From assembly GCF_000027125.1 (NCBI RefSeq), contig NC_017626.1: a stretch of 64,000 nt of DNA; one strand, given 5' to 3'. The notes beneath the pieces are model-generated. The model saw only the letters and a program-made list of their open reading frames with translations. It was not told the DNA's origin and searched no databases. Both the position numbers and the translations under genes were made by a program. This DNA comes from Escherichia coli 042. Lineage in GTDB: Bacteria; Pseudomonadota; Gammaproteobacteria; Enterobacterales; Enterobacteriaceae. Shown piece after piece: positions 2,340 to 9,192 of the stretch. The first letter of the stretch is position 1; every line of letters starts with the position of its first letter.

Positions 2340-3623
2340 TTACAGACTTCTTGAAGGTTGCGCAGCTGTTACAACACGCGGTTGATCTTCCGCGGCATCT
2401 TCCAGTGCACTTAAATCACGGTCTCTCACTTCTGGCATTTTCAGCGCAGAGATTAAACCAATCACTGAATATGCCATGATCATAATGGCGATCGGATACC
2501 AGGATTCCGTCATGGTGCAGAAAATACCCGCCAGGATAGGACCAAAACCGGAAGCGATAAGACCACCAATTTCTTTAGAAATCGCCATCCGGGTAAAGCG
2601 GTTTTTACAGCCGAACATTTCTGCCATGGTAATGTTTTCCAGAGCAAATAATCCCAGCACCGCACAGTTATGAATCACAATCAGTGCAACCATAATGGTG
2701 CTCGGGGCATAGCTTTTATCTACGATGATAGAAAGCATTGGCCACGCCAGCACAATCGCAGAGGTATTCATAATAATATACGGGATCCGGCGACCTATTT
2801 TATCGGATAACCAACCAAGGAACGGAATGGTCATAAAGCCGAGAATCGAACTGATCATCAATGCATCTGTTGGAATTGCTTTGTTAAACAATAACGTCTG
2901 CACTAAATAGCCTGCAAGGAAAGTCTGAATTAAACCGGAGTTACCAGCCTGACCAAAACGCAGCCCTGTTGCCAGCCAGAAGGATTTGCTCTGGAACATG
3001 CTACCAGCAGGTGCAGGTTTTGCTGTCGGTTGGTTGCTGTCGTTAACCTTCTCAAAGACCGGGCTTTCTTTCAGATTCATACGCAACCAGATAGCAAAGA
3101 CCATCACGACAACGCTCGCCAGGAACGGTATACGCCATCCCCACGCAAGCAGTTCCTCTTTACTGAGAATGAAGAACATAAAGGCCCAGATTGCCGTTGC
3201 GCTCAAGGTTCCGCAGTTAGTCCCCATAGCAACAAATGAGGAGATAATTCCGCGCTTACCTTTTGGTGCATATTCCGCCAGCATCGTGCCGGCACCGGAA
3301 ATTTCCGCGCCTGCCCCCAGCCCCTGAATAATACGCAGCGTCACCAGCAAAATTGGCGCAAACACACCAATTTGTGCATAGGTCGGCAGCACACCAATTA
3401 AGGTAGTACAGATCCCCATCATAGTGATGGTAATAAAGAGCACTTTTTTACGCCCGATTCTGTCGCCCATTTTGCCGAAAATAAATGCTCCGACAATACG
3501 CGCCACATAACCTGCACCGTAGGTTCCCATTGCCAGAATTAACGCCATTGCCGTTGATGATTCAGGAAAAAATATTTCATGAAACACTAACGCTGCGCCG
3601 AGCGAATATAACTGGAAATCCAT
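2340..3623 (-). pseudogene. ydfJ: MFS transporter YdfJ, C-terminal 427 codons; N-terminal ~34 codons separated by the prophage
   Basis: ORF starts MDFQLYSLGAALVF, which is internal to typical MFS N-termini; the missing N-terminus (MTIEKHERSTKDLVKAAVSGWLGTALEFMDF) is encoded at 51200..51310 on the same strand. Confidence 0.85.
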
Positions 3624-3625
3624 AA
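3615..3625. repeat. prophage attachment-site core, left junction (GAAATCCATAA)
   Basis: Identical 11-mer at 51218..51228; both lie on the ATG GAT TTC (MDF) codons of ydfJ. Confidence 0.6.
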
Positions 3626-4226
3626 TTCACAGGTGTTTTTTCCCATCCTGTGGTTTCCTTGGCGTTTTCTAGGTTTTTTCAGATAGTTGCATTTTTTAAA
3701 AAGCATCCTAAGTTCGATCTCAGTGTCTATCTGGGGCCTATTTCTGTCCCATATATGCCCCAAAAAAACTCCCCAACAGATAAGTAGTTTTTTCATGGAT
3801 TTATGCGTAAAATCAAGAACGGCTGGAAATCATTCAATACTCACACTATCGAAAAATTTACCAGCCAACCGCAGCACGTTCTTGCATAAGGCGTGTCTGC
3901 GTTTTTTCAACTATTCAGATACATCACTCCCATCACAGTCATTCCTCCGCATCAAAGGCATATAGGCTATATCACCTTGATATTTTTCTTTTTCAGATAA
4001 AAACTGTTATCTATGTATACTTTTAAACCCAATCCGTGTAGAGTCTCTGCATAAGATAGTTTGCAGTTGCCGCTTCAGCTTGCGCCATAAACCGCCTGAT
4101 TTTTGCTGCCACCTGCTAGCATTCCTGTATACCTGAAACGACAATGTTTATCTACGAACTTTAAAAACACCCAAGATAAAAATTGTCAACTATATCATAT
4201 ATAACACATTACTAATTCGAGGCTAT

Positions 4227-4340
4227 ATGAACAGCATACTGATAATCACTTCTCTCCTTATCATATTCAGCATTTTTAGTCATGCCCTAATAAAATTAGG
4301 GATTGGCATATCCAATAACCCAGACAAAACCGATGTATAA
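4227..4340 (+). CDS. hypothetical 37-aa hydrophobic peptide ([37 protein letters not shown])
   Basis: ATG preceded by GAGG about 6 nt upstream; single predicted TM helix; below the ORF-track length cutoff. Confidence 0.3.
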
Positions 4341-4408
4341 GTCAACATATCCTGAATCAGACATACAATATCGCAATGAAAATCAATAATATTTTAAGGA
4401 ATATCTTC

Positions 4409-4642
4409 ATGAAATCAAAAGACACCCTAAAGTGGTTCCCTGCGCAGCTTCCTGAAGTAAGAATTATCCTAGGGGATGCTGTAGTGGAAGTAGCAAAACA
4501 GGGAAGACCTATTAATACCAGAACATTGCTTGATTACATTGAAGGAAACATAAAGAAAAAATCATGGCTGGATAACAAAGAATTATTACAAACAGCGATA
4601 TCAGTTCTTAAAGACAACCAAAATTTAAATGGTAAAATGTAA
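4409..4642 (+). CDS. ydfK: Qin prophage small protein YdfK (YnaE/YdfK family)
   Basis: ORF 4376..4642; start chosen at MKSKDTLKWFPAQLPEV to give the 77-aa YdfK length. Confidence 0.75.
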   Translation: MKSKDTLKWFPAQLPEVRIILGDAVVEVAKQGRPINTRTLLDYIEGNIKKKSWLDNKELLQTAISVLKDNQNLNGKM

Positions 4643-4959
4643 TATAATAAACTTACTTTTTTATCATTTTTCCACTTTAACAACATTTTGCTCCACTTTT
4701 CCACGTCCAAACAACTTGAAATCTGGTTAAAATAACACGCAACACTATTCTTCTTCCTTGAGCCCGCCCGGAACTCGAAAAACAAACCGAGTTAAAGCCA
4801 TTTTTCACAAAATCGATTTTGGGTCTCACCAAAAATTACGGGGTTGCATACGCATTCGTTTATTTTCGAACGTGTACATACAAATATGCACAAAAATAAT
4901 CATAATTATTTTCTGAGATGCATTATGATATGAACACCAATTTCGAATAGAGTCTCACT

Positions 4960-5647: not shown

Positions 5648-6223
5648 CTACGGCAGTGCTGGCCATTCAATATCCTGTGCAGTTGACGTATCAACACGGT
5701 TCAGCAATACCCGATACTTTTTCCATGCTTCCAGCAACGAGATTTCTTCCTCCGTTGCAATTTCCAGATCTGCAGCATCCTGAAGCGGCGCAATATGCTC
5801 ACTGGCTACCTGCATCAGGTTGTTTTTTGTTTCTTCCGCCTCCCGGATCCGGAACAGTTTTTCTGCTTCCGTATCCTTCACCCAGGCTGTGCCGTTCCAC
5901 TTCTGAAACTCCCCTTCCGGCGATAACCAGGTAACATTTTCCGGTAACGGACCGAGTTCAGAAATAAATAACGCGTCGCCGGAAGCCACGTCATAGACGG
6001 TTTTTCCCCGATGATCTTCAACGAGATGCCACGATGCCTCATCACTGTTGAAAACAGCCACGAAGCCTGCCGGAATATCTGGCGGTGCAATATCGGTACT
6101 GTTTGCTGGCAGACCTGTATGAGGCGGAATATATGCGTCACCTTCACCAATAAATTCATTAGTTCCGGCCAGCAGATTATAAATTTTTATGGTCTGTGGT
6201 TGTTCACTCATTCTGAATGCCAT
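5648..6223 (-). CDS. tfaQ: tail fibre assembly protein (Tfa)
   Basis: 191-aa ORF immediately downstream of and overlapping stf; Tfa-like sequence. Confidence 0.85.
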
Positions 6224-9192
6224 TATGCAAGCCTCACAATATAGTTAAATGCGATGTTTTTGACGGTGTTTTCCGCGTTACCAGCAGCGTTAACGGTGAT
6301 GGTGTGTCCATGTGAACCAATCGCAACGGAGTGCGTATGAGCACCAATACCGACAGTATGTGCATGTGCGCCTGCGCTTGCAGCAGTGCCGGACAGCGAG
6401 TGGGTATGAGCACCATCTGATGATGTCTTCCCTGCATTACGAGTCTGGCCACTACCGCTTGTTGTGCTCATAATCCCCGCGCTTAGATTTGAAATCGCGG
6501 TATAACCATTAGGGAAAATGCTCGTGTTCGTGCCACCAAATGCACCGGAACTCTTGTGTTGGTGCGCACCGGCACTATTTGCAGTCCCGCTAATACTATG
6601 GGTATGCGCCCCGGTGTTATTCGTGGATTTGGTTCCGTAATCAAACGACGATGTGTTTTTCGTCCCCAAATCCGTACTGGATGCGCTGGCGCTGTGGGTG
6701 TGCGATTTAATGCCGTCCTGTTCCTGAGACAATACGGCACGACCACTGGCGGGTTTGCCCTTAATCGTCCAGCCACGCATATCAGGGATCACGCCTGACG
6801 GATAAGCGGCTGCAAGTTTCGGGTATGCAGATTTGTCAAAAGTCTGCCCCTGCATCAGGGCATAGCCAGACGGAACGGTATCTGATGGCCACGGGATTGG
6901 TGCGCCAGGCGGATAAAACTGCTCTGATGGCGTATAGAGTGAATAAACTGTACCGTCCGTTAACCCTTCCGGCTTATTAGCAGAATATGCTGGTGACGTA
7001 TGAATCGTCACGCTGGCATTACTGGTATAATCCCATTGAATATTTACACCAGTCGCATAATTTCCGATTGCAACGTAAATATCGTAAGTATCACCAGATG
7101 TATTGACCCAGGCAAAATTTGTAAACCCTGTCGATGTGCGCTGCCATAAAGCACCAGTAATCCCCTTCGGATTACCATTACCTGCACGCAAAACAAGTTC
7201 AGATATACCTGCCTGTTGAGGTGACCCCACGTTAAATCCCGCGCCACCAATCAACGTAATTGAAACAACAGAACTCGCCTGTGGCATGGTTACCGTTGCT
7301 AATTTGAACCAACCAGCACCACCGCTGAATGACATTGTTGTTGAGTTAAGCGTACCAATATCTTTCGGCGTCAGTGTTATATCCGCTGAAAGCGCCTTAC
7401 CATTCACCTTACGGGCAGAAGGTACCCGACCATTCGCATTATCATTAGCTGCTTTCACTGCTTTCGGTGTCGCGGCAAGCGTTTCAGATGCGCTGTTGGT
7501 TGCACTACTGAGCTGGACAATTCCTTTTTGTGCTGTCGTAGCGTTCTGAGCAGTATATTTCCCGTTAGCAAGGTCATAGGCTGCCTTTACCGACTTTGGC
7601 GTTGCCGCCAGCATTTCAGATGTGCTGTTGGTCGCGTTGCTAAGCTGAACTATCCCTTTCTGTGCTGTCGTTGCATCCTGTGCGGTGTATTTCCCGTTAG
7701 CCAGCTCATACGCGGCCTTAACGGCTTTTGGTGTTGCCGCCAGTGACTCGGAAGTGCTGTTAGTCGCACTGCTGAGCTGTACTATCCCCTTTTTCGTCGT
7801 GCTCGCATCCTCAAGCGCGACGGCGGATGCAATATCCTCTGCCCGTTTTGCCGCTGTCTCGGCGCGCGTTGCCGCGGATTCCGCCGTACTTTTGCTCTGA
7901 GCTGCCGCCGTCGCACTGCCAGCTGCCTCTGTCGCCTTCGTGGATGCCGTCGTGGCGCTGCCCTTTGCTGCTGACGCCTGTCTGGTCGCCTCATCTTTTG
8001 AAGCAGACGCAGATAATGCCGATGACGCCGCCGAACTGGCGGACGATGCGGCAGCCGTTTTTGAGGATTCTGCGCTGGTTTCCGACGCTTTCGCGTTCGT
8101 CTCGGATGTCTTCGCTGCGGAAGCAGACCTCGCTGCTGCGCTGGCCTGTACAGCGGCTTCGCCAGCCTTCGTTGTGGCTGTTGAAGCGGACGATGCAGCA
8201 CTTTCTGCCGATTTTCCGGCGGCGGTGGCACTGGCTGAGGCCTGCCCGGCATTTGTTGACGCGGCGCTGGCAGATGAGGCAGCCGCTGTTTTTGAGTCTG
8301 CTGCTGCGGAGGCACTCTGTGCTGCTGCCGTCTCAGAAGACTTAGCGTTCGTCTCGGACGTTTTTGCCGCCTTCGCGGAATTTCCTGCCGCTGTTGCCGA
8401 GGAGGCTGCACTACTGGCGCTCGAGGCTGCGCTCGTTTCTGATGATTTTGCCGCCTCTTTTGAGGCCGCCGCATCCCGGGCTGAGGTGGCAGCTTCTGAC
8501 GCCTTCGTGGTCGCGGCGGATGCAGAAGTGGCTGCTGATTGTTGTGACGCTGCCGCATTCGTTTCTGACGTTTTCGCGGCACTGGCACTGGTAGCTGCCG
8601 CGCTTTTTGAGGACTCTGCAGCGGCAGCACTTTTTGATGCTTCAGTAGCCTTTGTTGATGCCGTTCCTGCGCTGGAAGACGCTGACTGAGCCGACGTCGC
8701 GGCCTGCCCGGCTGATGTGCTGGCTGCACGTGCTGAGCCTGCAGCATCAGTCGCATGGGTTGCCGCCTCACGGGCTGATGTGCTGGCATCGCTGGCTGAC
8801 TTCTTCGCGGCTGCTGTGTTCTGCGCCACTGCGGACGCGTTACGCGCCACCTCTTCCACCATCAGTTCAAAACGGCGCAGTGCCTCAGGACGGGCATCAT
8901 CCTCCGTCATGGCACCGAGAAAATCATTCAGCGTACCGGGTCGGGAATCTTCATACACGGTGATGGTCCCGGCATGTGACGGCGGGAATCCTTCCACCAA
9001 CAGAATAACGCTGTACTGACCGTACTCAACGTCCATGCTGTAACGCCCGGCCTCATCCGGATTTTCTGAGGCCAGCGTGTTCACCACCACCGTGGTGCTG
9101 TTACGTTTTGCTTTCAGCTGGATTGTGCAGTTCTGTACCGGTTTTCCTGTGCCGTCTTTCAGTACACCTGAAATCTTTACTGCCATATTCAC
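6223..9192 (-). CDS. stfQ: side tail fibre protein (Stf), 989 aa, with expanded Ala/Ser/Thr-rich repeat region
   Basis: N-terminus [26 protein letters not shown]... like lambda Stf; low-complexity A/S/T-rich stretch; three ~43-aa tandem repeats; His-rich HxH motifs near the C-terminus. Confidence 0.85.
7455..7830. repeat. three tandem ~129-bp repeats inside stf
   Basis: Repeated protein unit TAQ(D/N)[12 protein letters not shown](N/S)ATNS(T/A)SE(M/T)LAATPK(A/S)VKAA seen three times, with matching near-identical DNA blocks. Confidence 0.7.

Follow-up and report, generated by a model that had tools for sequence, protein, structure and literature searches.

At the edge of a Qin-like prophage in Escherichia coli 042, the window (the whole stretch of 64,000 nucleotides of contig NC_017626.1 that was analyzed) carries the small gene ynfT, followed on the same strand by ydfK (Table 1). 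The open reading frame (ORF) had been put forward in an earlier note, made from the letters alone, as a possible gene for a 37-aa hydrophobic peptide, and its coordinates and translation were re-derived and stand. It is an already known gene, ynfT of prophage Qin, the twin of ynaM in prophage Rac. In the RefSeq annotation its coding sequence is labelled 'ynfT: YnaM/YnfT family protein' (WP_120795384.1) and lies directly upstream of that of 'cold shock protein YdfK'.

Table 1 Features at the ynfT locus (positions are those of the window)
Feature	Position	Strand	Description
ydfJ'	2340..3623	-	ORF; host MFS transporter gene, 5' end cut off by the prophage; RefSeq 'missing N-terminus'
Terminator-like hairpin followed by T6	3870..3907	+	CGCAGCACG...CGTGTCTGCG; -15.2 kcal/mol, z = -2.36
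Conserved upstream block, inferred promoter region	4174..4218	+	A-tract, TTGTCA 4183-4188, -10-like TATAAC 4200-4205
ynfT Shine-Dalgarno motif GAGG	4219..4222	+	4 nt before the ATG; from sequence
ynfT coding sequence	4227..4340	+	37 codons plus TAA; ATG 4227, stop codon TAA 4338-4340
Hairpin inside ynfT	4285..4301	+	Perfect 7-bp CCCTAAT-AAA-ATTAGGG, -10 kcal/mol, z = -2.97; in E. coli copies, not in Salmonella
ynfT-ydfK spacer	4341..4408	+	68 nt; holds the ydfK Shine-Dalgarno motif AAGGA 4396-4400
ydfK	4409..4642	+	77 aa, 'cold shock protein YdfK', Pfam PF27475 YnaE; second cassette gene

The search of small-protein families that had been proposed as a check on the ORF places it in the annotated YnaM/YnfT family. 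YnfT matches Pfam PF23676 ('Protein YnaM-like') over residues 1-37 of 37 with 96.2 bits (cut-off 27), NCBIfam NF041477 with 63.9 bits (cut-off 35) and also PHROG 35882, a group of unknown function. The K-12 counterpart is ynfT (b4748, 1632890-1633003), situated inside the feature 'cryptic prophage Qin', which starts at 1632277. YnfT of the window is 100% identical to both K-12 proteins, YnfT and YnaM (b4744, in Rac, upstream of ynaE), which are also identical to each other. At the DNA level, the window ynfT is one synonymous base apart from K-12 ynfT, while three synonymous bases are all that separates K-12 ynfT from ynaM. The window gene shares with the K-12 members its position upstream of ydfK or ynaE, where a lambdoid prophage borders on host DNA, and shows no difference of substance from them.

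The gene order is ydfJ' - ynfT - ydfK - pinQ - tfaQ - tail fibre, an arrangement that is repeated at the Rac counterpart. The K-12 prophage start at 1632277, carried over via the Qin alignment, puts the prophage boundary at about position 3615 of the window, with ynfT between this boundary and ydfK; the prophage-edge location given in the earlier note was thus correct. The side tail-fibre ORF of the window (6223-9192, minus strand) encodes 989 aa, whereas K-12 stfQ spans only 963 bp, and the window strain therefore carries a fuller Qin-like prophage than K-12. As ynfT is already covered by Pfam, NCBIfam and PHROGs and annotated in the K-12 reference, the value of the ORF as a discovery is limited. 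It is a calibration case, a true small-protein gene picked from raw sequence on weak cues. New in the present analysis are the purifying selection on ynfT, the boundaries of its cassette, its separability from ydfK, the AlphaFold helix and the narrow range of the family.

Translation signals, expression and selection

The GAGG motif before the start codon is present and its spacing, called good in the earlier note, is usable but rather short, just 4 nt to the ATG. The Salmonella copies have the identical Shine-Dalgarno motif and spacing (GAGGATATATG). Among 1000 shuffles of the intergenic stretch 3624-4408 (785 nt), 8% contained an ORF that starts with ATG, spans 37 codons or more and has a Shine-Dalgarno-like motif, and the surrounding 4 kb harbours 69 ORFs of at least 20 aa. 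By sequence alone ynfT stands weakly above chance, and given this shuffle frequency the caution that its support was weak was justified. Both counts fit the notion of a chance ORF in AT-rich prophage DNA, without any product. The gene is judged real because of conservation, selection and published immunoblots, and not because of its sequence pattern.

Chromosomal SPA tagging followed by immunoblotting revealed the products of both K-12 copies in cells grown in rich medium (VanOrsdel et al. 2018; PMC6001520, Table 1). In that study the coordinates of ynfT go under the name 'ynfQ'. The level of YnaM-SPA was found to be above that of most newly found small proteins, while a start-codon ribosome peak was absent for YnaM (Weaver et al.; 10.1101/511675). 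Between positions -52 and +23 relative to the start codon K-12 ynfT and ynaM do not differ, and footprints at these starts are therefore not uniquely mappable; multi-mapping would explain the missing YnaM peak. In a survey of the y-ome, ynfT is listed as uncharacterised (PMC11551758).

Comparison of the E. coli copies of ynfT with those of Salmonella phages yielded a dN/dS of 0.09-0.10, with 14-15.5 synonymous versus 8-11.5 non-synonymous changes, substitutions by codon position of 4/4/14 and p = 2-3e-5 for the excess of synonymous change, in a test that covers just two sequence clades and hence few independent lineages. For ydfK, the same comparison gave a dN/dS of 0.07-0.10. Identity to the Salmonella copies is 62-63% in the spacer between the two genes and 52-56% in the 50 nt upstream of ynfT. 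From window position 3865 onward, Qin and Rac share 98.8% identity over 2.4 kb, so that these two copies are uninformative on selection. Among 10 distinct protein variants, 23 of the 37 YnfT columns are invariant, including the whole of G25-K34. Strong purifying selection acts on the amino-acid sequence of YnfT between its E. coli and Salmonella phage forms.

A lack of conservation in related strains, which according to the earlier note would speak against the ORF, was not observed. Of 5426 complete E. coli genomes, 2806 gave matches in a megablast search with 4100-4700, at 3,401 places and up to 3 per genome, and in an evenly spread sample of E. coli records a YnaM/YnfT coding sequence was annotated under the match in 59 of 60. 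The frame is intact in all copies examined, even at ~79% DNA identity. Together with the immunoblot detection of both K-12 copies, the existence of curated Pfam and NCBIfam families and the pattern of substitutions over codon positions, this leaves virtually no probability for an ORF that arose by chance, a reading that is already refuted.

A full HMMER scan of 1.84 billion representative proteins returned four YnfT matches, all near-identical, and a degenerate DNA pattern for the 10-residue tail was found in two contigs (both E. coli) among the genomes of 100,044 species and in 24 viral contigs; these figures are lower bounds, because ORFs this small are passed over by gene callers and the pattern presupposes an invariant tail. 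From these searches the YnaM/YnfT family appears to be very narrow, confined to prophages of Escherichia and Salmonella. In tblastn searches against phages only residues 23-37 of YnfT were matched, because the low-complexity filter masks the helix, and a DNA search was used instead. A sequence search of the PDB returned no match for YnfT and just noise for the YdfK profile.

The ynfT-ydfK cassette and its leader region

The ynfT-ydfK pair is present in Salmonella phage 118970_sal3 and in many IMG/VR prophages at ~79% DNA identity. Homology with phage 118970_sal3 is confined to window positions 4174-4646, which means that the Salmonella homology runs from ~50 nt upstream of ynfT to just past the ydfK stop codon. 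At every locus with a YdfK of at least 87% identity and with upstream DNA present, an intact ynfT is found 68-74 nt upstream. Phages mEp460 and 2H10 show the order int - ~650 nt - ynfT - ydfK - pin - tfa - stf, and in several phage types the cassette is flanked by int/att on one side and by the pin/tail-fibre genes on the other. Integration of such phages puts it beside host DNA, as in this window. Its orientation is opposite to that of the tail-fibre genes and the late operon. The cassette was also found in a Salmonella phage whose tail genes are of the baseplate-J type. Its occurrence in different phage backbones indicates that it is mobile between backbones, like an accessory ('moron') unit.

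The ORF list extends ydfK to 88 aa, starting from an ATG at 4376. This codon is not conserved in Salmonella and the AAGGA motif serves the ATG at 4409, and the 77-aa form is therefore the likely one. Some Salmonella loci (e.g. L004 2478-2573, L019 2143-2343) harbour a second, very weak YdfK-like ORF (29-34% identity), 650-850 nt upstream of the cassette and in the same orientation.

The conserved block directly upstream of ynfT is its putative promoter region. The -10-like TATAAC is located 21 nt before the ynfT ATG, and the Salmonella copies have CATAAT at the same distance. The arrangement TTGTCA-11-TATAAC does not fit a canonical sigma-70 promoter, and a sigma-70 consensus scan directly upstream of ynfT called no promoter, with hits at the number expected from shuffles. 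Further upstream, the block shared by Rac, Qin and lambdoid phages begins at 3865, where the terminator-like hairpin sits. This hairpin probably insulates the cassette from upstream read-through. It also makes up most of a weak minus-strand match to Rfam CssrB (23.8 bits versus a gathering score of 76). A direct repeat on the plus strand, with 17 of 20 bases shared, connects 3995-4014 (AGATAAAAACTGTTATCTAT) with 4174-4193 (AGATAAAAATTGTCAACTAT). A partial palindrome (AGATAA...TTATCT) is present in the first copy, which a promoter-like site at 3992-4021 overlaps, and the second copy marks the start of the cassette homology between E. coli and Salmonella. The repeat may be a regulator site or may have arisen by chance.

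In one RNA-seq table, ynfT (5.7x) and ydfK (5.3x) are upregulated together, alongside the cold-shock genes cspI, cspG, cspB, deaD and rhlE (PMC13058169). Short transcripts or riboswitch-like leaders have been described upstream of ynaE and ydfK (Raghavan et al. 2011, as cited in PMC4152368 and PMC5089854), and RNAs of the ydfK/ynaE 5' leader occur in abundance and are bound by Hfq (PMC4152368, PMC5089854). These 'leader' RNAs occupy the stretch that contains ynfT and ynaM, suggesting that the 'ydfK/ynaE leader' riboswitch candidates of older RNA surveys are, at least in part, ynfT/ynaM mRNA.

In an alternative reading, the ORF would act mainly as a cis element of the ydfK leader, either as a regulatory leader RNA (the riboswitch-like candidate of Raghavan et al. 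2011) or as an upstream ORF that controls ydfK in the cold through the act of its translation and not through its product. The position of ynfT within the leader with its short transcripts, as described in the citing papers (PMC5089854, PMC4152368), the cold induction of ydfK and its co-regulation with ynfT, and the finding that ynfT always precedes close ydfK homologues all agree with such a role. However, the low dN/dS and the invariant 10-residue tail would be unexpected if only the RNA, or only the act of translation, mattered, and a stable protein product has been detected (PMC6001520). Neither 4205-4440 (z = -0.61) nor 4320-4430 (z = +0.62) shows a significant or conserved RNA structure, the strong local hairpin inside ynfT is not conserved in Salmonella, no Rfam family was found, and the cold-box motif of csp leaders was not found near the ynfT locus. 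Furthermore, ynfT and its upstream block are retained where ydfK is deleted, and more distant YdfK relatives do without ynfT. A mainly cis-acting role is quite unlikely on this evidence, although a dual role of ynfT, as protein and as cis element, is possible. Selection, cassette boundaries and separability put ynfT on a firmer footing as a selected protein, and not as a leader RNA.

The separability of the two genes is seen from both sides. YdfK relatives at 56-64% identity, encoded on eight contigs of Enterobacter, E. coli and Limnobaculum (L035-L042), have no ynfT-like ORF. On two IMG/VR contigs, L051 and L061 (L061 10341-10454), ynfT and its upstream block are kept and ydfK is deleted, with the junction to a tail-fibre assembly gene directly after the ynfT stop codon. 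Each gene thus occurs without the other, and neither product is therefore strictly required for the other. For the same reason YdfK was rejected as a protein antitoxin of YnfT.

Several neighbours were observed at these loci. In four of the eight loci with distant YdfK relatives (L038, L039, L041 and L042) a divergent YnfU zinc-knuckle small protein (PF23499) is encoded ~130 nt upstream, and the three Enterobacter loci have GnsAB (PF08178) further upstream instead. Upstream of ynfT on L061 lies a gene for a 729-aa colicin/pyocin-like bacteriocin (Cloacin and Pyocin_S domains), followed by a 90-aa ORF that is possibly its immunity gene. Because of this neighbour a role of YnfT in bacteriocin lysis or immunity was considered, and it was rejected as no link was found: the bacteriocin gene was seen at L061, the locus examined for it, and the E. 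coli copies lack such a gene upstream.

The AlphaFold model of YdfK (pLDDT 75.5) has four helices, and its best match is the Rcs-connector protein YmgB/AriR of E. coli (PDB 2OXL; TM 0.61/0.74, E = 0.09). A weak NCBIfam match of YdfK to YcgZ was also seen (15.9 bits versus a cut-off of 80). The ycgZ-ymgAB genes are cold-induced as well. Judging from the model, YdfK may be a prophage relative of small connector proteins such as YmgB/AriR and YcgZ.

The YnfT peptide and comparison with known systems

The single transmembrane helix with a polar tail that was read from the translation is supported by hydropathy and structure prediction. The hydrophobic core comprises residues 4-22 (mean Kyte-Doolittle hydropathy 2.52), and AlphaFold predicts one helix over residues 2-29 (pLDDT 94-95 for residues 1-20), followed by disorder at 30-37, the polar tail SNNPDKTD. 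Positive charges at K23 and K34 are balanced by negative ones at D33 and D36, leaving no net charge in the tail, and because of this balance the topology is not callable from sequence.

On the basis of size, hydrophobicity and prophage-edge location, the peptide had been compared in the earlier note with type I toxins and with small membrane regulators. As a type I toxin, YnfT would damage the membrane and would be silenced by an unrecognised antisense or divergent small RNA. Indeed, the toxins Ldr, Ibs, Hok, TisB and ShoB and Staphylococcus PepG1 are likewise short hydrophobic one-helix peptides, often multicopy and often encoded in prophages or other mobile DNA; the size, single helix and prophage location of YnfT fit this picture, and its locus is multicopy like those of the ldr, ibs and hok families. 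The Hfq binding of the ydfK/ynaE leader RNA (PMC4152368) could be taken in the same sense. A weak similarity of YnfT to the PepG1 model (E = 0.055) amounts to 13.1 bits versus a cut-off of 70, no other toxin family was matched, and Pfam gives YnaM only.

An antitoxin RNA was sought at the locus in several ways. A promoter-like TTGATT-16-TAAAAT on the minus strand (4418-4391) could drive antisense transcription, but the sequence scan of the opposite strand, which had been suggested as a check, detected no terminator, and its promoter-like sites numbered 7 versus 6.3 in shuffles. No Rfam small RNA family reaches the threshold at the locus, the K-12 annotation has no ncRNA at ynfT or at ynaM, and no repeat yields a small RNA-mRNA pairing within the likely ynfT mRNA; an undescribed RNA could nevertheless escape sequence scans of this kind. 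Unlike the mRNAs of type I toxins, that of ynfT has no repressive 5' structure: its Shine-Dalgarno motif is unpaired and the 5' region (the 4205-4440 fold given above) is not unusually structured. The tail of YnfT differs from those of the toxins in being without net charge, and ynfT persists where ydfK is deleted, so that YdfK is not an essential protein antidote. Furthermore, with the gene at its native locus, the tagged protein builds up during ordinary culture (10.1101/511675, PMC6001520). This argues against tight translational repression, although the tag could blunt toxicity. The resemblance to type I toxins stops at size and hydrophobicity; the toxin idea is not supported, and it is very unlikely that YnfT acts as such a toxin.

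Taken together, it is highly probable that ynfT is a protein-coding gene of a Qin-type lambdoid prophage, encoding a small inner-membrane protein as the first cistron of an accessory operon that is co-regulated in the cold. In the proposed mechanism, the prophage would express ynfT and ydfK as a bicistronic accessory ('moron') operon under a promoter of its own, a structure suggested by the co-inheritance of the two genes and by a single RNA-seq table. According to the AlphaFold model, YnfT would insert in the inner membrane via its single N-terminal helix (~residues 2-29), and by analogy with other small one-helix proteins it would probably act by binding a larger membrane protein. The 'small membrane regulator' reading is a possible one for the modelled peptide. 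A more specific proposal, that ynfT and ydfK form a two-part lysogenic-conversion module that acts jointly on a host envelope sensor or transporter in the cold, or that blocks superinfection, is speculative and unlikely. If true, it would give cassette-bearing lysogens of E. coli and Salmonella a selectable phenotype.

Moron genes of the lambda lom and bor type lie between the tail-fibre genes and att, and gp15 of phage HK97 is a membrane exclusion protein. Like moron genes, the ynfT-ydfK pair is a compact cassette that brings its own upstream block, runs opposite to the late operon, occurs in varied phage backbones and is expressed in lysogens. It differs in that it is not known to cause lysogenic conversion or exclusion, and a PADLOC search gave no match. 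AcrZ, MgrB, MgtS, KdpF and CydX of E. coli are small inner-membrane proteins with one helix, which bind to larger proteins of the membrane. Unlike this class, YnfT is borne by prophages and appears confined to Escherichia and Salmonella, and a sequence relation is not expected. YnfT is similar to these proteins in its size, its single predicted transmembrane helix, its short soluble tail and its detection by the same SPA-tag approach.
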